Shown piece after piece: positions 18,112 to 62,887 of a stretch of DNA of 64,000 bases. Origin of the DNA: Candidatus Omnitrophota bacterium (GTDB lineage Bacteria; Omnitrophota; Gorgyraeia; Zapsychrales; Zapsychraceae); NCBI GenBank assembly GCA_029261065.1, contig JAJDCB010000026.1, forward strand, positions 166,320-230,319. The letters run 5' to 3'. Position 1 is the stretch's first letter; the number at the start of each line of letters is the position of its first letter. The position numbers and the translations under genes are program-made. The notes beneath the pieces are model-generated. The model was given only the letters and a program-made list of their open reading frames with translations. It searched no databases and was not told the origin of the DNA.

Positions 18112-18125
18112 GAAGATTATTTTGA

Positions 18126-19009: not shown

Positions 19010-21459
19010 AAACCAAATTTATTTCAAAGTCCATTTTATATCTGTTGGTAACTCTGCTCGTTACTCATTTTTCAACCCTACCTTTGCAGGCATCCTCAAA
19101 AATAAAAACTTCTGAAACAGTTGTTAGTGAAATAGAAGAACCTCAAACCCCTCAAGAAGTACAAGAACCTCAAGAACAACCAAAAGATTCTAAAGAAATT
19201 AAAGAGAACAAGCTCAGTGAGTTAGCCATTAAGTCTTTATCGCAGCTTACTTCAGAGGAGATTATTCAACAGGCATGGGAATTTTCTAGCAATAATAATT
19301 TAGAAGAATTGGATCGTTTGATTGTGGCTTGTTTAGAATTTTATGGAGAAGATGCCAAGCTACAACATCAAGAATTAACAGATTTTCCTATTCGCACGGA
19401 AGCTAAAAATTATCAATCCTTAAACGATGTAGCGACGTGTCTTTTTATTAAAGCTGAGTCTCAGATGAATAATGGATTAAGAGAAAAAGCCATCGAAGGG
19501 TTTCAACATATTATTGATAATTACAAATGGTCACAGGCTTGGGATCCGAGAGGTTGGTATTGGTCGGTTGCTGAAAAAAGTCAGGCTAGTATCGATGTGT
19601 TGACAGGAAAGAAACAAGAAGAAATAGATCAAGCTGAGGTAAAAATTAATCGCACCAGACCGAGTCTTGTTGAAAAAGGGACAGAAAATATTATTGATTA
19701 TTCGAAATACGGAAAGTTTATTAATGTGGGCACTGAAAAATATCATTACTCTATTACAGATATGCAAGGACTTACGAAAGCGATAGGTGAGGGAATCTAT
19801 CCAAATACAAGCAGCATTTTTAATAATCCCCGTTTTAAGAAGTTAAAGAAGGAAGGACGCTTAGAGGGGAGTCAATGGGACTATGTTAACACTGATGATC
19901 TTGAAGCGGCTTTTTTTAAATGGGCTACAGCTCATGAGCCATGGGGGATTCGTTTGTTTTACATTGGTATGATATTTGAAAAGGCTGAGATGTACTACGA
20001 GGCTTTAAGAGCCTATCACGCTTTAGTTGTTCATTATCCTAAGACAGTTGCTTGGACATATTGGCAGACTCCTTGGTATCCAGGGCAAGTGGCTATTGCC
20101 AAAATTCGCCATATTATTCGTATTCGTCCAGAGTTACACTTGCAAGATAAGTGGATGAAGATTGAGGTGGAAAATGGGTTTGATAATGAAGTGAAAAATG
20201 ATATTTTTATCTCATATCCAGGAAAAATTTTAGAGAAGAGTTTGATGGAAAAAGTTAAAGATAGATTTCTGGATGATAAAGCGTCGTTAGATAAAGTCAA
20301 AAAAGAATTAGGAAAAGGGACTGTACGTTTGGTTCAATATGAAAATGATCACTGGCAGATGTTGGTTAATGATAAACCTTACATTATTAAAGGTGTCACT
20401 TATGCGCCAACAAAGATTGGTCAAAGTCCTGATAAAGGATCGTTAGAAAATTGGATGGAGCAAGATACAGATGATAACGGTCTTATTGATGGGCCTTATG
20501 ATTCTTGGGTTGATAAAAACAGAAATAATAAACGTGATGAAGATGAGGCTGTTGTTGGCGATTTTCAATTGATGAAAGATATGGGTGTTAATACCATACG
20601 TGTTTATCATGTTCCTGATACCCCTAATAAAAAATTGTTAAGAGAAATGTATGAGAAATATGGAATTCGTGTCATTATGGGAGACTTTTTGGGTAAGTAC
20701 GCTATTGGTTCAGGAGCCAAATGGAGCGATGGAACAGATTATGAAAATGAAGAGCATAAGAAGAAGATGTTAGATGCTGTTAAAGGAATGGTTAATGAGT
20801 TTAAGGATGAACCTTATATTTTAATGTGGCTTTTAGGTAATGAAAATAATTATGGCGTTGCTTGTAATGCTGATAAAAAGCCTGAGGCGTATTTTAAATT
20901 TGCTGATGAGGTTGCTCAATGGATCAAATCTGTTGATAAAAATCATCCCGTTGCAATTAGCAATGGTGATACTCTGTTTTTAGACCTTTTTGCGCAAAAT
21001 GCCCCTAATATTGATATTTTTGCAGCCAATGTTTATCGAGGCAATTATGGGTTTGATCCTTTTTGGGAACAAATTCAGGACGCCAGCGGTAAGCCTGCCT
21101 TTATCACAGAATATGGATGCCCTGCCTTTGCAAAACATCTATCGTTAGAGGAGGCCGAAAAAGCTCAAGCCGATTATCATGAAGGTAATTGGCTAGATAT
21201 TGCAAGAAATACAGCAGGTTCGCAAGACGGTGTAGGGAATGCTTTAGGGGGTATTGTTTTTGAATGGATGGATGAATGGTGGAAAAATTATGAACCTTAT
21301 CTGCACGATCGTGCCTCTGATGCCGTCGGACCGTTTCCGGGAGGTTTTTATTATGAAGAATGGTTTGGTATTGTAAGTCAAGGAAATGGTCGAAAAAGCC
21401 CTTTTTTAAGACAATTAAGAAAGGCCTATTTTTCCTATCAAGAGATGTGGAATCAATAA
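19006..21459 (+). CDS. Secreted clan GH-A (GH2/GH5-like TIM-barrel) glycoside hydrolase with an N-terminal GWFWKP-repeat domain
   Basis: Signal peptide. The N-terminal ~170 aa carry one copy of the repeat that also builds ORFs 21617 and 51589 (…AWDPRGWYWSVAEKSQ). C-terminal TIM barrel has acid/base-like LLGNENNYG and nucleophile-like FITEYGCPAF motifs. Confidence 0.55.
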   Translation: MKTKFISKSILYLLVTLLVTHFSTLPLQASSKIKTSETVVSEIEEPQTPQEVQEPQEQPKDSKEIKENKLSELAIKSLSQLTSEEIIQQAWEFSSNNNLEELDRLIVACLEFYGEDAKLQHQELTDFPIRTEAKNYQSLNDVATCLFIKAESQMNNGLREKAIEGFQHIIDNYKWSQAWDPRGWYWSVAEKSQASIDVLTGKKQEEIDQAEVKINRTRPSLVEKGTENIIDYSKYGKFINVGTEKYHYSITDMQGLTKAIGEGIYPNTSSIFNNPRFKKLKKEGRLEGSQWDYVNTDDLEAAFFKWATAHEPWGIRLFYIGMIFEKAEMYYEALRAYHALVVHYPKTVAWTYWQTPWYPGQVAIAKIRHIIRIRPELHLQDKWMKIEVENGFDNEVKNDIFISYPGKILEKSLMEKVKDRFLDDKASLDKVKKELGKGTVRLVQYENDHWQMLVNDKPYIIKGVTYAPTKIGQSPDKGSLENWMEQDTDDNGLIDGPYDSWVDKNRNNKRDEDEAVVGDFQLMKDMGVNTIRVYHVPDTPNKKLLREMYEKYGIRVIMGDFLGKYAIGSGAKWSDGTDYENEEHKKKMLDAVKGMVNEFKDEPYILMWLLGNENNYGVACNADKKPEAYFKFADEVAQWIKSVDKNHPVAISNGDTLFLDLFAQNAPNIDIFAANVYRGNYGFDPFWEQIQDASGKPAFITEYGCPAFAKHLSLEEAEKAQADYHEGNWLDIARNTAGSQDGVGNALGGIVFEWMDEWWKNYEPYLHDRASDAVGPFPGGFYYEEWFGIVSQGNGRKSPFLRQLRKAYFSYQEMWNQ

Positions 21460-21616
21460 ATACTGAAAAATTTAACCGTTTTTGTCAATTCTATGCCGTA
21501 TCGCTAAATTTTGGCATTTTTATATATTATAGTGTATAATTAGACTACGTATTTAAAGGTAGTCTTATTTTTAACCCACCAAAATTCCTAAAAAGAAGAA
21601 AAGGAGAAGTAGTAAC

Positions 21617-22489
21617 ATGAAAAAATTGTTGTATCTATTTATCGCATTACTTATTTCAGGGGCTGGATTTGTTAGTCCAAATCAAGTTGAAGCATACAAT
21701 TTCGGAGATTTTCGTTCGGAAACGTTGACAGCAAAAGCATGGGAAGCTTTGGCAGAAGACGATATTGAGGCCGTATTAGCATATACAAATAAGGTTATGG
21801 AACTTTATGGGGCGCAAGCACAACAAATGCAAGAAAGTATTGATGAATTTGTTAGTGGTCCTAAAGAAGACGTCTATGCTTTATGGGCATTAAACGATGT
21901 TTCTACAAGTTTGTTTATCCAAGGGGAAGCCTTTAGAAAAGCTAATATGGTTGACGAAGCCAAAGAAGTTTACAAGAAACTCTTAAACGAATACACGTAT
22001 GGACAATCTTGGGATGATAATGGTTGGTTTTGGAAACCAGCTGAAGCTGCTAAAGAAAAATTGGCAATGCTAGAATCCGGAACGAATTTAGATTTTGGCG
22101 ATTATTCTTCAGCGTATTTGACAGATCAAGCATGGAAGGCCTTAGGTAGCCAAGATCTAGAAGGTGTTGTTATCTATACGGATAAAGTTATGGAACTTTA
22201 TGCGAACCAGGCGCAAGAAATGCAAAATTCTTTGACAGAATATGCTTGGGAATCAAAAGAAAAAATATTTTCTTTGTGGGCTTTAAATGATGTTGGTACA
22301 GCGCTTTTCATCAGAGGTGAAGCGTTTAGGCAAGCAGGAAAGAACAAAGAATCTGCGCAAGCTTATAAAGCTCTCGTTGATAGTTATTATTATGCTCAAT
22401 GTTGGGATCCAGGTGTTAACAATAAAGGTTGGTTCTGGAAACCAGCTGAGGCGGCTCAACAAGCATTGGATGAAATTGGAGAAGTTTAA
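21617..22489 (+). CDS. Secreted protein made of two ~130-aa GWFWKPAEAA repeats (novel domain)
   Basis: Signal peptide. Two internal repeats, each ending ...LWALNDV[SG]T.LFI.GEAFR...Y.Y.Q.WD..GWFWKPAEAA. Confidence 0.5.
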   Translation: MKKLLYLFIALLISGAGFVSPNQVEAYNFGDFRSETLTAKAWEALAEDDIEAVLAYTNKVMELYGAQAQQMQESIDEFVSGPKEDVYALWALNDVSTSLFIQGEAFRKANMVDEAKEVYKKLLNEYTYGQSWDDNGWFWKPAEAAKEKLAMLESGTNLDFGDYSSAYLTDQAWKALGSQDLEGVVIYTDKVMELYANQAQEMQNSLTEYAWESKEKIFSLWALNDVGTALFIRGEAFRQAGKNKESAQAYKALVDSYYYAQCWDPGVNNKGWFWKPAEAAQQALDEIGEV

Positions 22490-29199: not shown

Positions 29200-29922
29200 A
29201 TGAAAAAAGAAACCATACTAAATTCTTTTAAATTCCTCAGCCTCATCGCCATCCTCACAGGCTGCTGGTGGCTTGGGCGAGAACTGGATATTGATTTTGA
29301 ACATTATCGAGAGATGTTCAAGCAGTATCCTGTTTTTATTTCGGGTCTTATTTTTATAGGTCTTTATAGTGCGATTACTTTAGTCGTTTGGTTTGTCGCC
29401 AAAGATGTTTTTCGTATTATGGCAGCTGTCCTTTATGGACCCCTGACAAGTACGATTATTATTTGGTTGGCTGAGTTACTTAATGCATTTATTCTTTTTC
29501 ATTTAAGTCGTTTATTAGGTCGAGAGTTTGTTCAACAACGTTTTAAGGTGCGTTCAAAAGATATTGATCATGTGAAAAAAGATACATCCTTTTGGTGGAT
29601 CTTGGCATTAAAGATTAATCCGCTGTTTCCATTTCGTTTGCTTGATTTAGGCTTCGGCTTATCCTCAGCATCCTTCTTAAAATATTTCACAATTTCTGCG
29701 ATCTTTACTCCCTTTCGCATTTATTGGCTGCAGTTTGTATTAGCAGGTGTAGGAGGAGAGATTTTAAAAGATATCAACTTCGTAAGAGATTTCTTAGTCG
29801 ACAATCCCTTTATTATTATTTACAGTGTGATTTATTTTTTGAGCGTATTTGTGTTAACAATTATTGCATTTACAGTACAATCTCAAAAAAGAAAAGACGC
29901 GTCTTATGCGGGACGAGTTTAA
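29200..29922 (+). CDS. TVP38/TMEM64 (DedA-related) family membrane protein
   Basis: Polytopic membrane protein. The pattern ...PLTSTIIIWLAELLNAFILFHLSRLLGREF... resembles the SNARE-associated / TVP38 family. Confidence 0.4.
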   Translation: MKKETILNSFKFLSLIAILTGCWWLGRELDIDFEHYREMFKQYPVFISGLIFIGLYSAITLVVWFVAKDVFRIMAAVLYGPLTSTIIIWLAELLNAFILFHLSRLLGREFVQQRFKVRSKDIDHVKKDTSFWWILALKINPLFPFRLLDLGFGLSSASFLKYFTISAIFTPFRIYWLQFVLAGVGGEILKDINFVRDFLVDNPFIIIYSVIYFLSVFVLTIIAFTVQSQKRKDASYAGRV

Positions 29923-29930
29923 AAGAAAGG

Positions 29931-30235
29931 CTCTTTAAAGTATTAAGTGGGTAAGTTAAGGCTAAAACATGTTGTCACGCGCAGTTCCGAAGCCGACAGC
30001 TTACCAATAATTGATGGTCAAGTCATATGATCATTCGCTCGGACAGTCCTCGCAGCGCATTTTTCTAAAAATTGCTTGCTGCGGAACTCGCTCTTATGAT
30101 CATATGACTTGACCATCAACAGAAAAGCTGAGAAATAAGCAATACAGTTCGTTTGCTTATTTCTTGTCGAGCGAAGGCTGTTTGAGCATGACAACATGTT
30201 TTAGCCTTAACTTACCCACGTGATTCTCCAAAGAG
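29931..30235. mobile_element. MITE-like non-coding element, copy 1 (~305 bp)
   Basis: Terminal inverted repeats CTCTTT..GTGGGTAAGTTAAGGCTAAAACATGTTGTCA (31 bp perfect). Internal 18-bp-arm hairpin GGTCAAGTCATATGATCA...TGATCATATGACTTGACC. No ORF. Homologous in inverted orientation to the element at 59300-59620. Confidence 0.55.
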
Positions 30236-30253
30236 TCAAAAGAAAATAGCTGG

Positions 30254-31270
30254 TTACGCCTGGATCCTTCGCCAATCGGTAAAAACAGGATCGAGGTTTT
30301 TTTCTTTTAAGAGGGTTGTGATGGCCTTCACACTGCGGGTATCTTCAATGTCAAATTGAGGGTCTTGTTGTTGGGGTTCTTTTAATGTGTAGCCTCCAAC
30401 AGAGGTGTTTGATCCAGCGGACATTCGCGTGATGCCAAGTTTAAGGGCATGGTCGCGTAATTCTGGTTTCTCACGTGTAGAAAGGTTGATGCCAACGCGT
30501 GGGAAAAGGGTTCGTGTTAGACAAATAATTTTAATAAACGTTTTATCATCGATATACACCTTCCCAAAATCCTCTCCTTTAATTTTCTGAATCCTTGGAA
30601 AGGAAAGACTGTACTCAACACCAGGATAATTTTTTTCCATAAAGCTTAAATGTTCGTATAAATCAAAAAGGTCTTGGGAGGTGTTTGAACTCAGGCCTAA
30701 TAATATTCCTAATGAAATACTTCTTATGCCCGCCGCAGCTGCTCTCTGGGCTGTACCCGCTCGAAAGTCATAGTCTGCTTTAATACCAGAGAGGTGAACT
30801 TTTTTGTAGCGCTCTCGATCATAAGTTTCTTGATATACAGTAATCCCATCAACACCATGTAAGAATAACGTTTTATATTCATCTTCTTCCATAGGATGAA
30901 CTTCTAAGCTTATATTGGGGAAGTATTGTTTGGCGACGGTGACGGTATCCATTAAATAAGAAAGAGGTGTTACTTTATAAGACTCACCGGTGAGCAGTAA
31001 AATATTTTCTATGCCTTGATCGGCAACATGCTTCATCTCTTGGTTCATTTCTTTATCCGTTAATTTAAAACGTTTGATGCGATGATGACTGTGAAATCCG
31101 CAATAGGTGCAATGACTGGAGCAGAAGTTTGATAAGTAAATAGGAGCGTAAAGAGAAATGGTGTGGCCGAAGTATTGACGGGTTAAGGATGAGGCCTCTT
31201 GAGCAAGGGCTTCGATATTTGTTGGATTGTTGTCGGTAAGGATTTTTTGTATGTGGTTAAAAGAAATCAT
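30254..31270 (-). CDS. thiH: 2-iminoacetate synthase ThiH (radical SAM)
   Basis: Radical SAM CxxxCxYC motif (SSHCTYCGF). 338 aa. Sits immediately downstream of thiS-thiG on the same strand. Confidence 0.75.
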   Translation of the reverse strand: MISFNHIQKILTDNNPTNIEALAQEASSLTRQYFGHTISLYAPIYLSNFCSSHCTYCGFHSHHRIKRFKLTDKEMNQEMKHVADQGIENILLLTGESYKVTPLSYLMDTVTVAKQYFPNISLEVHPMEEDEYKTLFLHGVDGITVYQETYDRERYKKVHLSGIKADYDFRAGTAQRAAAAGIRSISLGILLGLSSNTSQDLFDLYEHLSFMEKNYPGVEYSLSFPRIQKIKGEDFGKVYIDDKTFIKIICLTRTLFPRVGINLSTREKPELRDHALKLGITRMSAGSNTSVGGYTLKEPQQQDPQFDIEDTRSVKAITTLLKEKNLDPVFTDWRRIQA

Positions 31271-42680: not shown

Positions 42681-42899
42681 GTCGTCCCCGCCCCTTATGT
42701 CATTCCCGCGAAAGCGGGAATACTATGGGATAAACTCTAGTGGAATCACAAAATAGTTATAACTATAAATAGATTCCCGATTCCTCGGGAATGACAGGTA
42801 CGTGTTTTTCCCGTGATTACGCTTTTGTGCAACTCGGGAATGACAGGTACGTGTCTTTCCCGTGATTACGTTTTTGTGCAACTCGGGAATGACACGTAT
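42681..42899. repeat. Composite REP-like repeat cluster with 49-bp tandem direct repeats
   Basis: GTCGTCCCCGCCCCTTATGTCATTCCCGCGAAAGCGGGAAT. Then TTCCCGATTCCTCGGGAA. Then 2.3 tandem copies of the 49-bp unit CTCGGGAATGACAGGTACGTGTYTTTCCCGTGATTACGYTTTTGTGCAA (42784-42900). Confidence 0.6.
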
Positions 42900-42913: not shown

Positions 42914-44146
42914 ATGGACATCAAACTCAAACTAAAATCCCTCCCCCTAACCAGCGGCGTTTACTTGATGAAAGATAAGAAGGGGAAGGTCATCTACGTT
43001 GGTAAGGCCGTGTCGTTGCGTAAACGTGTGCAGTCTTATTTTAGAAAAAAGCAGACGATGACTAAGACCGATTTGTTGGTCGCTGAAATTGCAGACATTG
43101 ATTACATCGAGACCGCAAGTGAGGCGGGCGCTCTTTTATTAGAAGCGAGTTTAATTAAGAAATATAAAACAAAGTACAACATTGAACTGCGTGATGATAA
43201 GAGTTATCCCTACATTGAGGTGACGGGCGAGAAGTTTCCTCGTATTTCTGTCGAACGGCCCAATGAGAAGAAAAAGAGTTCCACGTATTATGGTCCGTAT
43301 GTTAGTGTTGGTTTAGTCCGTGAGGCGTTAAGTTTATTAAGAAAAATCTTTCATTTTCGCACCTGTGATCCTTTTCCTAAAAAAGAATGCCTCGATTTTC
43401 ATATTGGTTTATGCGAAGCTCCCTGCATAGGAAAGATTTCAAAAACAGAGTACTTAAAAAATGTTAAACATGTGCGTTTCATTCTTGAAGGCAAGCGTGA
43501 TCAGTTGTATAAGAATCTCAAAAAAGAAATGGATACCCACTCTCAACGTCAAGAATATGAACAAGCTGCCAAAGTGCGCGATCAGTTAAGAGCGATTGGG
43601 GCGTTGTATTCGGGAACGACGAATATCAATTATTTTAAAGAAGCTGAACAGTTGCAGCGAGCTTTGGGTTTAGAGCGATTGCCTGAACGTATGGAGGCCT
43701 TTGATATTTCTAATATTATGGGAAATCAAGCCGTGGGCTCTATGGTTTCTTTTTTTCATGGCAAACCAGATAAGCGAAATTATCGGCGCTTTCGTATTAA
43801 GGATGTTGAGGGAATAGATGATTTTAAAATGATTGGAGAAGTCGTTCGCCGCAGATACACGAGACTTAAAAAGGAGGGGGCCGCTTATCCTGATTTAATT
43901 ATCATTGATGGAGGAAAGGGGCAATTATCAAGTGCTTGTGAGGAGTTAAAAAAAATCGATGTTGTCATTCCTATTATTTCGTTAGCTAAAAGAGAAGAAG
44001 AGGTTTTTTTTCCGTATAAAAGAAGTTCAGTTCGACTTTCTCATGAGTCTTTGGGGCTTAATCTTTTGCGAAGAATCCGTGATGAAGCGCACCGTTTTGC
44101 CATAACATATCATCGACTTTTGCGTTCTAAGGCATTTTTGAAATGA
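42914..44146 (+). CDS. uvrC: UvrC-like excinuclease (GIY-YIG, UVR and RNase H-like endonuclease domains; no C-terminal HhH)
   Basis: GIY-YIG N-terminus (GVYLMKDKKGKVIYVGKA). UVR motif (QEYEQAAKVRDQLRAI). Endonuclease domain (FDISN…IIIDGGKGQ). 410 aa. Confidence 0.7.
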   Translation: MDIKLKLKSLPLTSGVYLMKDKKGKVIYVGKAVSLRKRVQSYFRKKQTMTKTDLLVAEIADIDYIETASEAGALLLEASLIKKYKTKYNIELRDDKSYPYIEVTGEKFPRISVERPNEKKKSSTYYGPYVSVGLVREALSLLRKIFHFRTCDPFPKKECLDFHIGLCEAPCIGKISKTEYLKNVKHVRFILEGKRDQLYKNLKKEMDTHSQRQEYEQAAKVRDQLRAIGALYSGTTNINYFKEAEQLQRALGLERLPERMEAFDISNIMGNQAVGSMVSFFHGKPDKRNYRRFRIKDVEGIDDFKMIGEVVRRRYTRLKKEGAAYPDLIIIDGGKGQLSSACEELKKIDVVIPIISLAKREEEVFFPYKRSSVRLSHESLGLNLLRRIRDEAHRFAITYHRLLRSKAFLK

Positions 44147-48169: not shown

Positions 48170-48267
48170 ATCGTCCCCGGCTCATCTGTCATTCCCGCGG
48201 AAGCGGGAATCCATGGGGTGAACATCTCATAATAGTATTAATAGGTTCCCGCTTCCGCGGGAATGAC
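48170..48267. repeat. REP-like repeat cluster between prfB and secA
   Basis: ATCGTCCCCGGCTCATCTGTCATTCCCGCGGAAGCGGGAATCC ... GGTTCCCGCTTCCGCGGGAATGAC. Two inverted copies of the core. Confidence 0.55.
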
Positions 48268-48297
48268 AGTTTTTTGAAGCAACAATAAGGTGATATC

Positions 48298-51588: not shown

Positions 51589-53166
51589 TTGATTATGCGA
51601 ATAGAAAAGAAAGTCACTAGAGCGTTTTTTTTGATTCTTGTACTCATTGTCTTCTGTCTGGGCTTGACTCATACAACAAAGGCAAATGAGTATGATTTGG
51701 AAAATAACTCTTCAGAAGAACTCACAGCTAAAGCCTGGGCCGCTCTCAAAGAAAGAGACGTTGAAGCTGTGTTAGTTTATACAAATGAATGTATAAATTT
51801 GTATGCCGGTCGTGCTAAGAGAATGCAGGCTGAGTTAGAAAGTTATCCAACGGGTTCTAATGATGACGTTCATCAATATTGGGCTATCAACGATGTAGCC
51901 ACTTCATTATACATTCAGGCGGAGGCTTTTCGTGAAGTGAACATGATGGAGGAAGCCACAGAAGTCTACATTAAAATAATAAACGATTATAGTTTTGGCC
52001 AGACATGGGATCCAAGGGGCTGGTTTTGGAAGCCGGCTGAAGCCGCACAGGATAGGTTAGACGTTATTGAGTCGGGTAAGAATATAGATTTTGGGAATTA
52101 TTCTTCGGAGTTCTTGACGACGCAAGCATGGAATGCCTTAAATACTGGCGATCTTGACTCGGTCGATGACTACGCAGATAAGGTGATTAGCTTATATGCT
52201 GAGAAAGCTAAGGAGATGCAAAATTTTTTGGAAGACTATCCTTTGGGGTCAAATGAGGACATTCATCTTTTTTCAGCGCTCAATGATGTCGGAACTGTTT
52301 ATTTTATTAAAGCGCAAGCGCAAGAGAAAAAAGATGATAAAGATGGGGCTATCTATTATTATAAAAAAATAATTAACAGTTATTCTTACTCCCAGTGTTG
52401 GAATCCAGAAGGCTGGTTTTGGAAGCCGGCTGAAGGCGCGAAGGACAGAATACATATTATTAGGTCGGGTAAGAATATAGATTTCGGGAATTATTCTTCG
52501 GAATTTTTGACAACGCAAGCATGGAAGGCTTTAAATGCTGGAGACTTTGAGTCGGTCAATGACTATGCAGATAAGGTGATTAGTTTATATGCCGATAAAG
52601 CCAAAGAAATGCAAGACGCATTGAGCGGGTATCCCTGGGAGTCAAATGCAATTATTCATTCCCACTGGGCGTTGAATGATGTAGGCACCGTTTATTTTAT
52701 AAAGGGAGAAGCGGAAAGGAAGGCGGGCAACAATAAAAGAGCTATTAACTATTATGAAAAGGTTGTTAGTAATTTTTATTTCTCACAGTGCTGGGATCCA
52801 GAAGATTGGTTTTGGAAGCCGGCTGATGCAGCTCAACAGGCTTTAGATGAACTAGAAGATGAAGCGCAGAAGGCTAAAAAATACGCTCATATGAAAAGTT
52901 CAAAAAGAATCGGTGCTGATACGAAAAATATTACGGATAATAAGTTAGGCGTTGAAGGTGGTTTAGTCGTTTCTAATATGACTTATGGGAGTAAAAGTCC
53001 AATGATTGGAAGTATAGAGAATAGTGAAGTCATTTTTAACAATCAGAGTGAAAGTGAAGATGAAAATAAAGACAGTGTATGGGGAAAACTTTGGTGGAAA
53101 GTTATCATTCCAATATCAATATCGGTGATAGCAGCGGCATTAATTTTAAAATTCGTAAAGAAATAA
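51589..53166 (+). CDS. Secreted, C-terminally membrane-anchored protein made of three GWFWKPAEAA repeats
   Basis: Signal peptide. Three ~135-aa repeats each ending Q.WDP.GWFWKPAE[AG]A. Ser/Asn-rich linker. C-terminal TM helix (VIIPISISVIAAALIL). Confidence 0.5.
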   Translation: MIMRIEKKVTRAFFLILVLIVFCLGLTHTTKANEYDLENNSSEELTAKAWAALKERDVEAVLVYTNECINLYAGRAKRMQAELESYPTGSNDDVHQYWAINDVATSLYIQAEAFREVNMMEEATEVYIKIINDYSFGQTWDPRGWFWKPAEAAQDRLDVIESGKNIDFGNYSSEFLTTQAWNALNTGDLDSVDDYADKVISLYAEKAKEMQNFLEDYPLGSNEDIHLFSALNDVGTVYFIKAQAQEKKDDKDGAIYYYKKIINSYSYSQCWNPEGWFWKPAEGAKDRIHIIRSGKNIDFGNYSSEFLTTQAWKALNAGDFESVNDYADKVISLYADKAKEMQDALSGYPWESNAIIHSHWALNDVGTVYFIKGEAERKAGNNKRAINYYEKVVSNFYFSQCWDPEDWFWKPADAAQQALDELEDEAQKAKKYAHMKSSKRIGADTKNITDNKLGVEGGLVVSNMTYGSKSPMIGSIENSEVIFNNQSESEDENKDSVWGKLWWKVIIPISISVIAAALILKFVKK

Positions 53167-54981: not shown

Positions 54982-56124
54982 ATGAACTGGAGACAATCAG
55001 AAATTAAAATTATTGGTTATGTGTTAGCCCTTCTCTATGCCATTTCCTTTTTGGCATATTATAATTTTTATCAATTTGTTACACTTAATGCTCCAGACGT
55101 TCAGGCGATGAAGTTGGTGTCCCTTTCGGTGATAGCTACATTCTTCGCTATTCTTTTTGTAGGTTCCATAGCTGTTGCTCAATTAAAAGAATGGGGGCGC
55201 ATTGTTATTGTATCTGCCAATCTTATGATGGGCATTTATTTGGCTATTCCGTATATAAATCCTGCGGACATCCTTCCGTTAAGTTACATCATCATGAATG
55301 TTGTTATATTTCTTTATTTTATTCAAGATAAAGTGAAGTCTCGTTTTAATATGATCATCGACGGCAAATGGCGTAGCATATTAGTCATCGATGACGATGA
55401 AACATTGCTTAAAACTATTCGCCCCATTCTTATCTCCAAAGGTTACTCGGTCTTAACAGCCATGACAGGAGAAGATGGTTTGCAAGCTGCTAAAAAACAT
55501 AAACCGGATTTAATCATTTTAGATGTTATTCTTCCAGGCATAAAGGGAAGAGATGTGTGTCGTAAAATAAAAGAAGATAAAACAACGACACATATTCCGG
55601 TTGTATTTTTGACATCGAAAAGTTCTGAATCTGATATTGAAGCAGAACTAGATGCTGGTGCGATAACACATTTGACGAAACCTGTTAATGCGACCATTTT
55701 AAGTTCTACAGTAAGAAATATTTTAGATGCAGAGTCAAAAGATCGTCCGGAATGGCGAAGTATATTAGTTATTGATGACGATCTAACGTATCTAACGACA
55801 TTGCGTCAATCATTGTTATCACATGGTTACTCGGTTTTAACAGCGAGTTCAGGAGAGGAAGGCCTTGCAATTGCTAAGAAACAAAAACCCGAACTCATTT
55901 TGTTGGATGTTATTATGCCAGGCCTTAAGGGTCGAGAAGTTTGCGAAAAACTTAAAGAAGGATCTGAGACTGTAGATATCCCAGTCGTTTTTTTAACAGC
56001 TAAAAATTCTCCAGATGATATTAAGGCAGAGTTAGAAGTTGGGGCAGTGACACATTTGACAAAGCCAGTCGATACCAAAGAGTTAATTTCGACAATCAGT
56101 AATATATTACATTTACAAAGTTAA
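54982..56124 (+). CDS. Membrane-anchored tandem receiver (REC-REC) protein with no output domain
   Basis: ~110-aa N-terminal region with 3-4 TM helices. Two ~125-aa CheY-like receiver domains (phospho-acceptor LIILDV and LILLDV; TKP motifs) share ~60% identity with each other. Confidence 0.65.
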   Translation: MNWRQSEIKIIGYVLALLYAISFLAYYNFYQFVTLNAPDVQAMKLVSLSVIATFFAILFVGSIAVAQLKEWGRIVIVSANLMMGIYLAIPYINPADILPLSYIIMNVVIFLYFIQDKVKSRFNMIIDGKWRSILVIDDDETLLKTIRPILISKGYSVLTAMTGEDGLQAAKKHKPDLIILDVILPGIKGRDVCRKIKEDKTTTHIPVVFLTSKSSESDIEAELDAGAITHLTKPVNATILSSTVRNILDAESKDRPEWRSILVIDDDLTYLTTLRQSLLSHGYSVLTASSGEEGLAIAKKQKPELILLDVIMPGLKGREVCEKLKEGSETVDIPVVFLTAKNSPDDIKAELEVGAVTHLTKPVDTKELISTISNILHLQS

Positions 56125-57086: not shown

Positions 57087-57121
57087 TAATTTTTAGCGGT
57101 AGAATAACTAAGGTACAAGAT

Positions 57122-57140
57122 ATCCCGCCTTTTGCGGGAC
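57122..57140. repeat. REP-like hairpin (diverged copy)
   Basis: ATCCCGCC-TTTT-GCGGGAC. Confidence 0.4.
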
Positions 57141-57257
57141 CGCGGCAAGTTACAAAAAAGAAACAATAACCAATGACTAAAACACCAAACGTTAGGTTTC
57201 TAAGTAGTTGATTTTTAATCGTTTTTGTAGTTTTTACCTTTTATTGGAGAAGTCAAA

Positions 57258-57443
57258 ATGTCTCAAAATTCCGAATCCAGTTACAAAAAATTTTTGTCTG
57301 TCCTCATCGGTATTTTTCTTCTTGTCCTAGGCATCACCTTATGTTTGGTCTGGTGGAAAGATATGATAGCTTTAGTCCGAGGAGCTTCAGGTATTGTTTT
57401 GGCAGTGGCAGGGTTGTTGGTTTTGTATACACTTAGTAAATAA
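57258..57443 (+). CDS. Small membrane protein (61 aa)
   Basis: Two hydrophobic helices. RBS-like GGAGAAG upstream. Confidence 0.25.
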   Translation: MSQNSESSYKKFLSVLIGIFLLVLGITLCLVWWKDMIALVRGASGIVLAVAGLLVLYTLSK

Positions 57444-57552
57444 TTGGATTAAGTTAGAATTTATTGTTTAATACACCAAAAGAATTATCAATGGTTAAAA
57501 AAGTTAAGCGTTTGGTCATTTTATTATTGGGTATTGGTTATTTTTTGCCTTG

Positions 57553-57572
57553 GTCCCGCCAGAGGCGGGATA
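57553..57572. repeat. REP-like hairpin (diverged copy)
   Basis: GTCCCGCC-AGAG-GCGGGATA. Confidence 0.4.
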
Positions 57573-57629
57573 TCTTGTCTCTTGTACCTTGGTTATTCTT
57601 GCGTCAATAAATACCTTTAAAGGACAATC

Positions 57630-58657: not shown

Positions 58658-59281
58658 ATGAAACAAATTACAGAAGCTATGAATCGAATTCGAAAATATT
58701 TTTTATCAGGATTGGTCGTCTTTTTGCCGATCACCTTGACGATTTTTTTATTTATTTGGGCGGTTACTGTATCCGACGGTGTGTTAGGAAAGTACCTTCA
58801 ACCTGTATTTGAGAAGAGGTTTGATTTTTATGTTCCGGGTATAAGTATTATTGTTACGGTTATAATAATTATTATTGTTGGTTTTCTTGTGACGAATTTT
58901 TTGGGACAGAGAATCTATTCTTATTTCGAGAATTTGGTTATCAAGTTTCCATTTTTTCGTCAAGTGTACCCTGCCCTTAAAGAGATGGCGTTGTTTCTTT
59001 TTTCTCGAGATCGTTTATCAAAATTTAAACAGGTTGTCCTTATTGAATATCCTCGCAAAGGTATTTTCGCCATTGGATTTTTGACGAATGAATCGTCGCA
59101 ACTTTTAAAAGATAAGGTGAAGAAAGATATTATCAATGTCTTTATTCCAAGTGCTCCGGGACCGTTAACAGGATTTGTGATATTGGTGCCACGTAATGAG
59201 GTTATTTTTACGGATATGACGATTGAGGAAGCTTTTAAATTTATTCTTTCAGGGGGCGTTGTTAATCCGTTGCATGTTTAA
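58658..59281 (+). CDS. DUF502-family membrane protein
   Basis: N-terminus ...RKYFLSGLVVFLPITLTIFL and the overall pattern are typical of DUF502. Confidence 0.45.
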   Translation: MKQITEAMNRIRKYFLSGLVVFLPITLTIFLFIWAVTVSDGVLGKYLQPVFEKRFDFYVPGISIIVTVIIIIIVGFLVTNFLGQRIYSYFENLVIKFPFFRQVYPALKEMALFLFSRDRLSKFKQVVLIEYPRKGIFAIGFLTNESSQLLKDKVKKDIINVFIPSAPGPLTGFVILVPRNEVIFTDMTIEEAFKFILSGGVVNPLHV

Positions 59282-59299
59282 AGAGTAACCAATGGCTTT

Positions 59300-59620
59300 T
59301 TGAAGTATTAAGTGGGTAACTTCAGAGGCCAAATAATATTGTCATGCTCAAATAAATAGCGTTTAGCTATTTTTTTGAGTGCTCAAACAACCTTCGCTCG
59401 ATAGGAAATAAGCAATAATAAAAGTTGTTTTGCTTATTTCCCTAGCTTTTTCTAAAATTAAGGGTCAAGGCCATATGATCACAAGAGCGAGTTCGTCGCA
59501 AAGCGACGTTGTCTGAGCGAATGATCATATGGCCTTGACCCTTAATTGATTGTAAGCTAGCGGCTTCGGAACTGCGCGTGACAACATTATTTAGCCTCTG
59601 AAGCTACCCACTTAAATTTC
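59300..59620. mobile_element. MITE-like non-coding element, copy 2 (~320 bp, inverted relative to copy 1)
   Basis: Terminal inverted repeats ATTAAGTGGGTAACTTCAGAGGCCAAATAATATTGTCATGC / reverse complement. Internal 20-bp-arm hairpin GGGTCAAGGCCATATGATCA...TGATCATATGGCCTTGACCC. Internal segments align with the reverse complement of 29931-30235. Confidence 0.55.
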
Positions 59621-59639
59621 CAAGGAACCTAAATAATCA

Positions 59640-61070
59640 ATGCTTTTTAACTCCCTAGAATTCCTCATATTCTTTACTATTGTTTACAGTCTCTATCTTG
59701 TTTGTAACCATCAATGGCAAAACCGAATGCTTTTGGTTGCGAGTTATGTCTTTTATGGTTGTTGGGACTGGCGATTTCTTTCTCTTATTTTTGTCTCAAC
59801 TCTTCTAGATTATGTCTGCGGCCTAAGAATGGCTTCACGGCCCAAAGATAAGCGAAAGATTTTTCTTTGGATCAGTTTAGGAGTTAATCTTACTCTCCTT
59901 GGTTTCTTTAAATACTTCAATTTTTTCACTGCAAATGTAATTGATTTTTTGGCGTTGATTAACGTTGATACCAATATCACCTTACTCAATATTATCCTTC
60001 CTGTCGGTATTTCTTTTTATACGTTTCAATCCCTGAGTTACACCATTGATATTTATAGGGGAGAGATCAAGCCTACGCGCAACTTTATTGATTTCGCCCT
60101 TTATGTTGCGTTGTTTACTCAATTAGTGGCGGGACCTATTGAGCGCGCTAAGCATTTATTACCTCAGGTGATTAAACCCCGCACAACATCAATGACGCAT
60201 TTTTATGAGGGATGTTTTTTAATTTTTTGGGGACTATTTGAGAAGATTTTTATTGCAGGGAATTTGGCCAAGATTGTAGATCCAATTTTTGCAGCAGAGG
60301 GCTCTTATGAAGGGTTGTCTGTTCTTGTTGGAATGTATGCGTTTTCTTTTCAAATTTTTTGTGACTTCGATGCGTATTCGAATATCGCCAAAGGATTGGG
60401 GCGATGTATGGGCTTTGATATCATGACTAATTTTAACTTGCCCTTTTTTGTCACCAACATGCAAGACTTTTGGAATCGTTGGCACATCTCTTTAAGTCTT
60501 TGGATACGAGACTATCTTTACTTTCCTCTTTTTCAAGCTTTAAAGAAGTTTAAAGGTAATATAAGAGTCTACATCACGTTATTGATTTCAATGACTCTTA
60601 TTGGTCTTTGGCATGGGGCGTCATGGAATTTTGTTGTGTTTGGTGTTTATCATGGGATCTTGCTGGCCATCTATGTGATGATCCGTCTGTATTGTCAGAC
60701 CTGGGTTAATCCGAAATCTCAATTGATGAAAGGTGTGTGGCATGTGGCGCGTGTCGTCTTTGCTTTTCATTTGATTGCCGTGGGAATGCTCATTTTTCGT
60801 GTGCAGACAATGGGACAGGCTGCGCGTATGCTGGGATCGCTTATAACAAACTTACAGTGTGATCAAACGGTAATAAATAGTTTTGTATTATTTCTTTTGA
60901 TTATCACACCACTTTTAGTCGTTCAGTTTGGACAACTTAAAACCAAGAATTTGATGTTTCTCTATAATCAACATTGGCTTGTTAAAACATTCGCATACGC
61001 CTTTATGAGTTATTTGCTTCTTGGCTGGGGGATTATGCAAACAGAGGAGTTTATTTACTTTCAATTTTAG
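59640..61070 (+). CDS. MBOAT-family membrane O-acyltransferase (DltB/AlgI/PatA-like)
   Basis: 476 aa, polytopic. Conserved His in LIGLWHGASWNFVVFG. Typical MBOAT core. Confidence 0.8.
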   Translation: MLFNSLEFLIFFTIVYSLYLVCNHQWQNRMLLVASYVFYGCWDWRFLSLIFVSTLLDYVCGLRMASRPKDKRKIFLWISLGVNLTLLGFFKYFNFFTANVIDFLALINVDTNITLLNIILPVGISFYTFQSLSYTIDIYRGEIKPTRNFIDFALYVALFTQLVAGPIERAKHLLPQVIKPRTTSMTHFYEGCFLIFWGLFEKIFIAGNLAKIVDPIFAAEGSYEGLSVLVGMYAFSFQIFCDFDAYSNIAKGLGRCMGFDIMTNFNLPFFVTNMQDFWNRWHISLSLWIRDYLYFPLFQALKKFKGNIRVYITLLISMTLIGLWHGASWNFVVFGVYHGILLAIYVMIRLYCQTWVNPKSQLMKGVWHVARVVFAFHLIAVGMLIFRVQTMGQAARMLGSLITNLQCDQTVINSFVLFLLIITPLLVVQFGQLKTKNLMFLYNQHWLVKTFAYAFMSYLLLGWGIMQTEEFIYFQF

Positions 61071-61073
61071 ACG

Positions 61074-62390
61074 ATGACACATTCAAAACATAATTCTATT
61101 TTTATAAAACTCTTTCGTATTTTTCTTTTTATCATCTTTTTAGAAGTTTTTCTTATTTGTGGGGGTGTGATTACGAAAGCTTATCAAGACCAGCACAATA
61201 AAAGGAGTTTGGGTAAGGACTATGAATATCGTATTTTAGTGTTGGGCGATTCCTTAAGCCACGCTGGAGGAGTGGATTCTTATCCGCTTCAATTAGAGAG
61301 ACTGCTCAATAAATCTCAATCAGACGTAATTTTTAAAGTCATTAATGAATCTTATCCTGCTCAGAACTCTAATATCATTCGAGAGAAAATTGATGAATGG
61401 ATTAACGAATACCAGCCGCATCTCGCTGTCACGATGTTTGGTATGAATGACGATGTTGATTTGGTGGCCTTTGATCAAAGGGATGAACCGCAAACTTTAA
61501 GTGCGACACTTAATAAATTTAAAGTTATGCGTTTAACCAAAAGCCTTTGGAAAGATATCATAAATCATTTTTCAGATGAGAGTGATGAAGCGCTCAGCAT
61601 GGAGAAGAATGATACGAAAGAAGCTCAAGATCAACCTAAAACAGGACCTGTTCCGCCTAAGTTTTCTTCCTTTATGATGCAAGGTATCAAATTGAATCAA
61701 CAGGGACAATATGCGCCAGCAGAGAAGATCTTTAAAGTGCTGTCACAAACAAATTTTGATGATACCTTCACCAAACGCTCGAATCGAGAATATTACAACA
61801 GTCTTTTTGGACAAAAGAAGTTTGAACAAGCCGTTAGGCAACTGAAACCATTTTTTCAAGATGACGCATGGGATTTTTTCGCCAGTGAAAGAGTAAAAAT
61901 TTTATGTAAAGATTCACAAGCAGCCCAACATACAATCACGATGTTTAAAACGATGATTCAAGAACGCCCCAAGGCAGAACGTTTTTACAATCTAACGGGA
62001 GCTTGTCACGCCGCCCAAAATCAAAACAAAGAAGCTGATCAATATTTTCAAGAAGCCAAAAAATTAAGTTCAAGCTCCATCAATCCCGTCACACAAGACA
62101 ATTATTTGTATGTCATAGATCGTTTAACCGAAAACAATATCTACATTGTTGCCATGCAATATCCAAGAAGAGATATCGAACCTCTAAAAAACATGCTTCG
62201 TTCATCAAGTACATTCGCAGACATTCATTTCGTTGATAACGATCAAACATTTGAATCTGCACTATCCAGCAAATCCTACGATGAGATCTTTATCGATCGA
62301 TCATTTGGAGACTTTGGACATTGTTCAGAAGAAGGCTATGCTCTTATTGCAGAGAATTTAGCAGGAGTTATTAAAGATATTGTTTATTAG
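61074..62390 (+). CDS. Membrane-anchored SGNH/GDSL-type esterase/transferase with a helical (TPR-like) insertion (DltD/AlgJ-like)
   Basis: N-terminal TM. Block I GDSLS (VLGDSLSHAGG). Block III GMND (FGMNDD). Block V DxxH near the C-terminus (GDFGH). ~250-aa helical insertion between blocks III and V. Confidence 0.6.
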   Translation: MTHSKHNSIFIKLFRIFLFIIFLEVFLICGGVITKAYQDQHNKRSLGKDYEYRILVLGDSLSHAGGVDSYPLQLERLLNKSQSDVIFKVINESYPAQNSNIIREKIDEWINEYQPHLAVTMFGMNDDVDLVAFDQRDEPQTLSATLNKFKVMRLTKSLWKDIINHFSDESDEALSMEKNDTKEAQDQPKTGPVPPKFSSFMMQGIKLNQQGQYAPAEKIFKVLSQTNFDDTFTKRSNREYYNSLFGQKKFEQAVRQLKPFFQDDAWDFFASERVKILCKDSQAAQHTITMFKTMIQERPKAERFYNLTGACHAAQNQNKEADQYFQEAKKLSSSSINPVTQDNYLYVIDRLTENNIYIVAMQYPRRDIEPLKNMLRSSSTFADIHFVDNDQTFESALSSKSYDEIFIDRSFGDFGHCSEEGYALIAENLAGVIKDIVY

Positions 62391-62530
62391 GCGAATCTAG
62401 GCGAATCACGCAAATTAAGTGTAAAGCGATATGATCATTCGCTCAGACAAACTCCCTTCGGTCGTAACTCGCTCGGTGATCATATCGCTTTACACTTAAC
62501 GGAAGAGTCGGCGAAGAGAGAATGTATCTT
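62391..62530. mobile_element. Solo hairpin module of the MITE family (copy 3)
   Basis: Perfect 21-bp arms AAGTGTAAAGCGATATGATCA...TGATCATATCGCTTTACACTT (62417-62507). Shares the ATATGATCATTCGCTCRGAC core with copies 1 and 2. Confidence 0.45.
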
Positions 62531-62590
62531 CACATATTTTGCGATTTATGATATATTGACGTTCCATTAAACAATTTAATATTTTTCCCA

Positions 62591-62887
62591 ATGATCAACG
62601 AAGAACAAGTAACCGAAGCCATTTATGCAGCTATTGATTCGGTTAATGAAACCTTACCAGCTGAGAAGCACATTAAAAAAGCCTTAGATACTGTTTTATT
62701 TGATATTGATGGTTATGTGGACTCTTTGGGTTTAACGATTTTAGTTGTTGCTATTGAACGAAAGGTTGATGAGATGTTTAATCAAAGCATCAATCTGATG
62801 AACGAACAACCAATGGCAACAAGCACCGGTCCATTTTCTAATGTCAAAAATTTAATTGATCACGTGAAAGTTTTATTAGAGGAATAA
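62591..62887 (+). CDS. Acyl/peptidyl carrier protein (DltC-like)
   Basis: 98 aa. Phosphopantetheine-attachment Ser motif (DGYVDSLGLTILVVAIE). Confidence 0.6.
   Translation: MINEEQVTEAIYAAIDSVNETLPAEKHIKKALDTVLFDIDGYVDSLGLTILVVAIERKVDEMFNQSINLMNEQPMATSTGPFSNVKNLIDHVKVLLEE

Follow-up and report, generated by a model that had tools for sequence, protein, structure and literature searches.

Here, we present an analysis of a family of repeats in a 64-kb stretch of Omnitrophota DNA, which as a whole is referred to as the window. In these 64 kb, there are two full copies (copies 1 and 2) and one partial copy (copy 3). We conclude that the elements are most likely non-autonomous MITEs that are mobilized in trans by an ISL3-family DDE transposase encoded elsewhere. 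A MITE reading had been put forward in a preliminary description of this DNA, and it is supported by target-site duplications, aligned terminal repeats, a copy outside this genome (L002, from a MAG labelled Planctomycetales) and an orthologous site that lacks the insertion, as well as by the sequence of the tips, the lack of coding capacity and the intergenic position. The interior of the elements is a set of nested palindromes holding a perfect hairpin of 22-26 bp around a core. While a MITE family is a known kind of element, this one provides a MITE family with defined ends for the Omnitrophota, a phylum of very small, uncultured bacteria.

The window is chromosomal and contains housekeeping genes (mnmG, mnmE, thiH, thiG, uvrC and genes for a PLP-dependent enzyme, a VTT/DedA-like protein and an MBOAT acyltransferase, among others), and the best named relatives by its MnmG are all Candidatus Omnitrophota MAGs (71-78% identity). 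The three loci originally described as sharing sequence were recovered by repeat finding, alignment and BLAST. Consistently, a covariance model of the hairpin, run over the whole window with filters off, found exactly three sites with scores of 95-102 bits, while the next-best match, an unrelated palindrome, scored 25 bits. The loci are as first given; the ends of copies 1 and 2, in contrast, lie 2-9 bp further out, and we place copy 1 at 29929-30237 and copy 2 at 59294-59629 because the inverted repeat runs on imperfectly past the positions first given and the two copies cease to resemble each other at GGCT on either side. Copy 1 aligns over its full length with the reverse complement of copy 2 at 80% mean identity, in agreement with the opposite orientation noted before, and the interiors are inverted relative to each other. 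The internal segments CGCGCAGTTCCGAAGCC and GAAATAAGCAA..TTGCTTATTTC are indeed common to copies 1 and 2. The features are as follows, where the + strand means that the core reads TTCGCTC first.

29929-30237, + strand: copy 1, probable full MITE, 309 bp; left tip GGCTCTTTAAAGTATTAAGTGGGTAAG, right tip (reverse complement) GACTCTTTGGAGAATCACGTGGGTAAG.
29921-29928: left duplication of copy 1, AAAAGAAA, identical to 30238-30245; two of its bases are also the final two of the stop codon of the VTT/DedA-like gene upstream.
30238-30245: right duplication of copy 1, AAAAGAAA.
29947-29977 / 30189-30219, + strand: inner perfect 31 bp of the terminal inverted repeat of copy 1, 100% over 31 nt.
29978-29995, + strand: 5' box, CGCGCAGTTCCGAAGCCG, identical in copy 2; the counterpart in L002 is CGCGCAGTTCCGCAGCTG.
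30011-30119, + strand: hairpin module of copy 1 with perfect 24-bp arms (30011-30034 / 30096-30119), 95 bits.
30025-30045 and 30085-30105: invariant core of copy 1, ATATGATCATTCGCTCGGACA and AACTCGCTC-TTA-TGATCATAT, respectively.
30131-30164, + strand: side hairpin, AGAAATAAGCAA..TTGCTTATTTCT, common to copy 2 and absent from L002.
30169-30188, + strand: 3' box, GAGCGAAGGCTGTTTGAGCA, common to copy 2; the form in L002 is GCGAGGACTGTTTGAGCA.
59294-59629, - strand: copy 2, probable full MITE, 336 bp; its interior runs in the opposite direction to that of copy 1.
59286-59293: left duplication of copy 2, TAACCAAT, matching 59630-59637 at 6/8 positions.
59630-59637: right duplication of copy 2, TAAATAAT.
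59456-59547, - strand: hairpin module of copy 2 with perfect 26-bp arms (59456-59481 / 59522-59547), 102 bits.
59353-59387: 35-nt insertion specific to copy 2, a small palindrome (AAATAGC..GCTATTT) that forms its own hairpin; an alignment gap relative to copy 1.
62415-62499, + strand: copy 3, solo hairpin with perfect 23-bp arms (62415-62437 / 62477-62499), 99 bits, with the same invariant core.

Neither full copy contains a transposase gene. The statement that the elements lack an ORF holds in that there is no credible gene, while mechanically a 59-aa ORF is present on the minus strand of copy 1 (30018-30197). We did not treat this ORF as a gene because its exact sequence is absent from a collection of 15 billion proteins, in which none of the six mechanical ORFs of the elements (at most 59 aa) was found (0/6).

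Terminal inverted repeats of at least 31 bp, as initially reported, hold under proper alignment in copies 1 and 2. In copy 1, the repeat runs on imperfectly to 53 nt, and in copy 2 the terminal arms are 37 nt long with 92% complementarity. Target-site duplications, which were sought once the ends had been placed correctly, directly abut the ends of the inverted repeats and match at 8/8 positions in copy 1 (AAAAGAAA / AAAAGAAA) and at 6/8 in copy 2. Based on the whole window, the empirical chance of such a match at that spacing is 6e-5 for 8/8 and 6e-3 for at least 6/8, and the joint chance is ~4e-7 before allowing for the choice of boundary. These matches bear on the idea that the repeats are immobile, i.e., that they are local palindromes generated by duplication or gene conversion and that the agreement of the flanking 8-mers is a coincidence in AT-rich DNA. 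The loci known in this genome number only three, the duplication of copy 1 is of low complexity and that of copy 2 is imperfect, all of which would fit this idea. However, the 8/8 and 6/8 matches lie exactly at the ends of inverted repeats that were defined independently; moreover, 29 kb separate copies 1 and 2, which are oppositely oriented and have unrelated genes around them, another MAG has a homologue, and a relative lacks a spacer at the site of copy 1. We therefore consider it extremely unlikely that the repeats are immobile and return to the reading that they are MITEs.

The sequence of the tips together with the 8-bp duplication points to ISL3 as the transposase family, keeping in mind that 8-bp duplications with GG ends also occur outside ISL3, with IS6 and parts of IS1595 likewise producing 8 bp. 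The elements here have a GGCTCTT-type tip and an 8-bp duplication. In the ISL3 element ISArsp7, the inverted repeat is GGCTCTTCGCGG.. and the duplication is 8 bp (PMC6305408); similarly, the ISL3 copies of Microcystis and a 187-bp MITE have common ITRs starting with GGCTCTTCG and 8-nt duplications (PMC11448079). Beyond the GGCTCTT tip, the ends were compared by eye and against ISArsp7 only. The four tips of copies 1 and 2 read GGCTCTTT, GGCTTTTT, GACTCTTT and GGTTCCTT; because three of them deviate from GGCTCTT, the copies may no longer be mobile. Also, the tips of copy 1 are far less complementary than its inner stem, with eight of the first 18 positions mismatched and all of the following 31 paired, as counted from the sequence. 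The left tips of copies 1 and 2 are identical at 24/27 positions on the plus strand even though the interiors are inverted, and we considered that the interior had been flipped between the tips. This idea was rejected because the right tips are alike at 17/27 positions, which is no more than in comparisons with the left tips (18-19/27). Judging from these sequences, one degraded tip per copy would be a simpler account of the pattern.

All three copies lie between genes. Copy 1 occupies the spacer between the convergent VTT-domain gene (ending at 29922) and thiH (ending at 30254); copy 2 lies between two co-directional genes, a DUF502 gene (ending at 59281) and the MBOAT gene (starting at 59640); and copy 3 lies between a GDSL-like gene (ending at 62390, with its stop codon 24 nt before copy 3) and a small gene starting at 62592. 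When the element and one duplication are subtracted, 14 nt are left between the neighboring genes at both full-copy sites. Synteny around mnmG is conserved in three relatives. In one relative (L021, GCA_020632515.1), the VTT-domain gene and thiH overlap by 4 nt, compared with a gap of 331 nt in the window, and these 331 nt correspond to the 309-nt element, the 8-nt duplication and 14 nt. Because this relative is distant (its MnmG is 77% identical), we regard its empty site as supportive rather than as isogenic.

We suggest that transposition would proceed as follows. The transposase would recognize tips of ~25 nt (GGCTCTTT..AAGTGGGTAA) and cut a short AT-rich intergenic spacer with a stagger of 8 bp; these 8 bp would then be duplicated by gap repair. 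The parent ISL3-family transposase would be expected to be flanked by tips of the type GGCTCTTT..GTGGGTAA. Several observations speak against mobilization by an ISL3 transposase: none of the 15 scanned ORFs of the window (0/15) encodes a transposase; the known full copies are just two, one of which, copy 2, has an imperfect duplication; in the L002 copy, the outer arms are different and neither a right tip nor a duplication is clear; tips are missing from copy 3; and the family is very rare in the genomes, metagenomes and viral contigs scanned. With the tips and the 8-bp duplication in hand, one can look for the parent transposase and date insertions across strains.

The 35-nt palindromic insertion of copy 2 has the 8-nt direct repeat TGCTCAAA at its borders (59345-59352 and 59380-59387), which suggests that palindrome-generating events occur in these elements. 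Possible origins of the insertion are an inverted duplication by template switching and the footprint of a nested insertion that duplicated 8 bp.

Copy 3 had been described as the hairpin module alone, and our analyses agree: its flanks have no significant similarity to those of the hairpin in copies 1 and 2 (shuffle p 0.25-0.7), and we found neither ISL3-type tips nor a recognizable duplication nor defined module ends at this locus. The idea that copy 3 is a decayed full MITE is unsupported, as its flanks are not significantly similar to the flanks in those copies. Copy 3 is either a remnant of an old insertion or a hairpin module that spread or persisted separately. A 15-nt AT-rich stretch, ATTAAACAAT(A)TTAA, is common to copy 3 (62565-62579) and L002 (475-489), where it lies ~60-65 nt downstream of the hairpin and ~15-20 nt upstream of the next gene start in both cases (p = 0.0025 by shuffle, uncorrected for six tests). 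In the window, this stretch overlaps a promoter-like site. Its sharing may be due to chance in AT-rich DNA.

The copy in L002 is the one further copy found outside this genome and lies between two divergently oriented ORFs. In common with the copies in the window, it has the 5' box (CGCGCAGTTCCG.AGC), the hairpin with the same core and the 3' box (..CTGTTTGAGCA). The stem around its hairpin has a different sequence that is still complementary, and its outer arms differ (TTTGACATCAAAT / ATTTGATGTCAAA). There is a partial left tip (TTGAAGTATT), no clear right tip and no duplication. L002 was the one true match to the DNA pattern among 185,579 GTDB species genomes, in which three chance matches inside genes were also obtained. 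In the JGI metagenomes, the two-sided pattern gave no match and the one-sided pattern 13 matches, all by chance; in IMG/VR, the core gave no match and a 16-nt tip pattern 17 matches, again all by chance; and blastn against the PLSDB plasmids gave no match. The chance matches in genomes, metagenomes and viral contigs lie mostly inside genes. Similarly, no copy was present in four loci, 78-84 kb in total, from Omnitrophota relatives with 76-78% identical MnmG, one of which (L023) also carries an MBOAT gene product that is 86% identical. Altogether, the element family is rare in the data searched. In a Logan contig from the same organism (L001, SRR15505515), the 3' end lies inside the perfect 31-bp terminal repeat of copy 1, from which we conclude that the element breaks de Bruijn assemblies. 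Such breakage may be one reason for the few copies in public assemblies, and the elements mark likely assembly break points.

The unusual part of the elements is the hairpin. Its arms had been described as perfect over 18-21 bp; they are perfect, as stated, but longer (24, 26 and 23 bp in copies 1, 2 and 3, respectively), and in all four known copies (the three in the window and L002) they are 22-26 bp long and fully Watson-Crick paired. A covariation check across the four copies showed that 92/92 paired arm cells are Watson-Crick and that 12 of the 24 pairs have changed on both sides, with no one-sided change and no G·U pair; among 500 shuffles and the slid registers, none came near these values. 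The arm sequences next to the core differ at 6-9/23 positions, and every change is compensated. Several of the compensated changes are transversions (A-T to T-A, G-C to T-A) and, therefore, cannot pass through a wobble pair. The core itself, with a 5' part ATATGATCA-TTCGCTCRGACA and a 3' part AACTCGCTC-NN(N)-TGATCATAT, is invariant in the four copies except for one A/G position. It comprises blocks of 21, 9 and 9 nt, which are the inner ends of the arms and the adjoining loop strands. The core is asymmetric, with TCGCTC repeated directly within a structure that is inverted elsewhere, and the hairpin model scores ~100 bits on one strand vs ~50 bits on the other; thus, the core has a polarity as expected of a recognition site. 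The apex is a variable nested palindrome that falls into two length classes, i.e., long in copy 1 and L002 and short in copies 2 and 3. The outer stem and the stem around the hairpin differ in sequence between copies and are always complementary, save that the outer stem of copy 2 has three mismatches, all of which are G·T when read in the orientation of copy 1. A pseudoknot-like pairing over 7-10 nt, of the 5' box with the 3' loop strand and of the 5' loop strand with the 3' box, was dropped because the segments that would pair are not the same from copy to copy and the motifs amount to short TCGC repeats.

Full elements fold, as RNA, with energies of -148 and -161 kcal/mol over the spans folded (z = -15 and -18 relative to dinucleotide shuffles). 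These extreme values, the covariation of the helices (12 pairs changed on both sides, with 0/500 shuffles reaching the observed values), the three G·T mismatches in the outer stem of copy 2 and the location of every copy in the window 7-25 nt from a stop codon (3/3) could be taken to mean that the elements or the hairpin are a structured non-coding RNA, either a small RNA or a cis-acting mRNA stabilizer, terminator or RNase III target. However, no element matched Rfam at the gathering score in a search of the whole window, and in E-value mode only models of plant miRNA precursors were hit, as generic hairpins and with scores far below gathering. Moreover, the hairpin pairs include neither G·U nor one-sided changes, the better-folding strand alternates from copy to copy, and the orientation relative to the flanking genes is mixed, with copy 2 antisense to its operon and copy 3 sense. 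We also found no promoter-like or intrinsic-terminator-like site inside the elements. Finally, functional bacterial RNAs do not typically contain perfect duplexes as long as 24-37 bp, and in the hairpin form the conserved core would be left as an unpaired internal loop of ~12x12 nt. Based on the missing Rfam match, the lack of G·U pairs, the lack of strand asymmetry and the mixed orientation, we consider a structured RNA very unlikely. Accordingly, of the alternative that had been raised initially, namely, a structured RNA or a protein-binding site, neither is needed to explain the whole element, the RNA is disfavored, and protein binding is a candidate reading for the inner core.

Because there is no strand or orientation bias, maintenance at the DNA level is favored over an RNA gene, and we infer that the arms are held complementary as DNA. 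This could occur by arm-to-arm template switching or repair in a fold-back structure, or by selection for a DNA hairpin or cruciform. Template switching in quasi-palindromes is established in E. coli. As a side effect, elements that are transcribed within the mRNAs of their neighbors would be predicted to form stem-loops of about -150 to -165 kcal/mol, which might act as barriers or RNase targets.

The best reading of the invariant core would be a putative sequence-specific protein recognition site. The interior of the elements may be more than neutral filler because the combination of invariant core and boxes, covarying helices and variable loops is that of a structured nucleic acid under selection. 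Along this line, the hairpin might be a separate functional unit under selection, i.e., a DNA or single-stranded DNA site for a recombinase, an HUH enzyme or a regulator, which the MITE merely carries. The core is invariant in four copies, including that in the other MAG, while the adjacent arms vary with full compensation; copy 3 is a hairpin without detectable homologous flanks; the core is asymmetric, with its direct repeat and unequal scores on the two strands; and the all-Watson-Crick pairing fits DNA rather than RNA. On the other hand, no candidate recombinase, HUH enzyme or regulator was seen adjoining any copy, the hairpin alone has neither a duplication nor defined ends, and only four instances are known. 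Furthermore, copies 1 and 2 also have nearly the same boxes outside the hairpin, and for this reason part of the conservation between these two copies may reflect recent common ancestry. We regard a MITE that merely carries such a separate unit as possible but doubtful, and it is unlikely, in our assessment, that the hairpin and its invariant asymmetric core act as an independent functional module, which would be an undescribed DNA or single-stranded DNA recognition structure. If it were, a hairpin module that persists without the MITE (as in copy 3) and is common to different uncultured bacteria of the PVC group would ride on an ISL3-type MITE. In any case, the hairpin is a clean small example of arms that evolve in concert around an invariant asymmetric core. 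Apart from the hairpin, the elements, which we read as MITEs, are ordinary and a matter of routine repeat annotation unless the core is a protein recognition site, in which case it would offer a new handle on mobile DNA in the Omnitrophota.

The window contains a second, unrelated repeat family of at least 11 short GC-rich palindromes, (A/G)TYCCCGC-N4-GCGGGRAT with the core TCCCGC-N4-GCGGGA, which are REP-like and start at 18122, 28114, 29098, 29167, 31331, 42698, 42769, 48187, 48241, 57117 and 57548. They are intergenic, often have TGTCAT/ATGACA before or after them and often form inverted pairs (e.g., 48186-48269 and 42697-42797); two pairs bracket the genes on either side of copy 1. Related palindromes (GATCCCCG..) are present in intergenic DNA of the relative L023. 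At 57087-57613, inverted repeats of ~60-90 nt with 75-79% complementarity, which contain REP-like palindromes, flank a segment of ~350 nt coding for a predicted 61-aa membrane peptide (57259-57444). This region may be an invertible segment or a cassette with inverted REP-like units at its borders. A 49-nt unit is tandemly duplicated with 96% identity at 42784-42881, beside a REP-like palindrome and a short distance before the start of the uvrC-like gene (42914-44146); this gene encodes 410 aa, which is short for UvrC. Diverged tandem repeats also occur within genes, with a period of 393 nt at 51955-52846 and 19489-22469 (ORFs 51589-53166 and 21617-22489, with a conserved GWFWKPAEAA-type segment) and a period of 384 nt at 55441-56112 (ORF 54982-56124), and these genes look like genes for repeat-domain proteins.

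Among known systems, REP sequences and REPINs are mobilized by RAYT (HUH) transposases. REPs are 20-40 nt long, are short palindromes with a conserved 5' tetranucleotide, and are not known to have a target duplication or DDE-type terminal inverted repeats. Like the hairpin described here, they have complementary arms and a short sequence-specific part, and REPs occur singly or as inverted doublets. We rejected an identity with REP/REPIN, as the full copies carry 8-bp duplications and long inverted repeats of the DDE type and no RAYT gene is present among the scanned ORFs of the window. Likewise, a PATE or omega-RNA element derived from IS200/IS605, which would have subterminal hairpins but neither terminal inverted repeats nor a duplication, was rejected because terminal inverted repeats and duplications are present and there is no Rfam match. 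ERIC/IRU elements of Enterobacteria and Correia elements (CREE) of Neisseria are imperfect palindromic repeats of 100-150 bp or more in intergenic regions; compensated changes keep their stem, they are co-transcribed with their neighbors, and they sometimes have internal insertions at fixed positions. The elements in the window resemble both in being intergenic palindromes with compensated stems and, in copy 2, an internal insertion. Correia elements have a TA duplication and TATAGTGGATTA-type repeats, and ERIC is not known to have a defined duplication; unlike the elements here, neither is known to have a GGCTCTT tip, an 8-bp duplication or this core.

The closest likeness is to ISL3 and its derivatives. 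Like ISArsp7 (PMC6305408) and the 187-bp MITE of Microcystis aeruginosa (PMC11448079), the elements here have GGCTCTT tips and an 8-bp duplication, and like the MITE derivatives of ISL3, they are small, non-coding and intergenic and fold back on themselves. They are longer than the Microcystis MITE (309-336 bp vs 187 bp) and have far longer inverted repeats (~49 nt, of which 31-37 are near-perfect, vs 9 nt). Unlike their ISL3 relatives, they have an interior of nested palindromes with an invariant asymmetric core, and their host belongs to the Omnitrophota.
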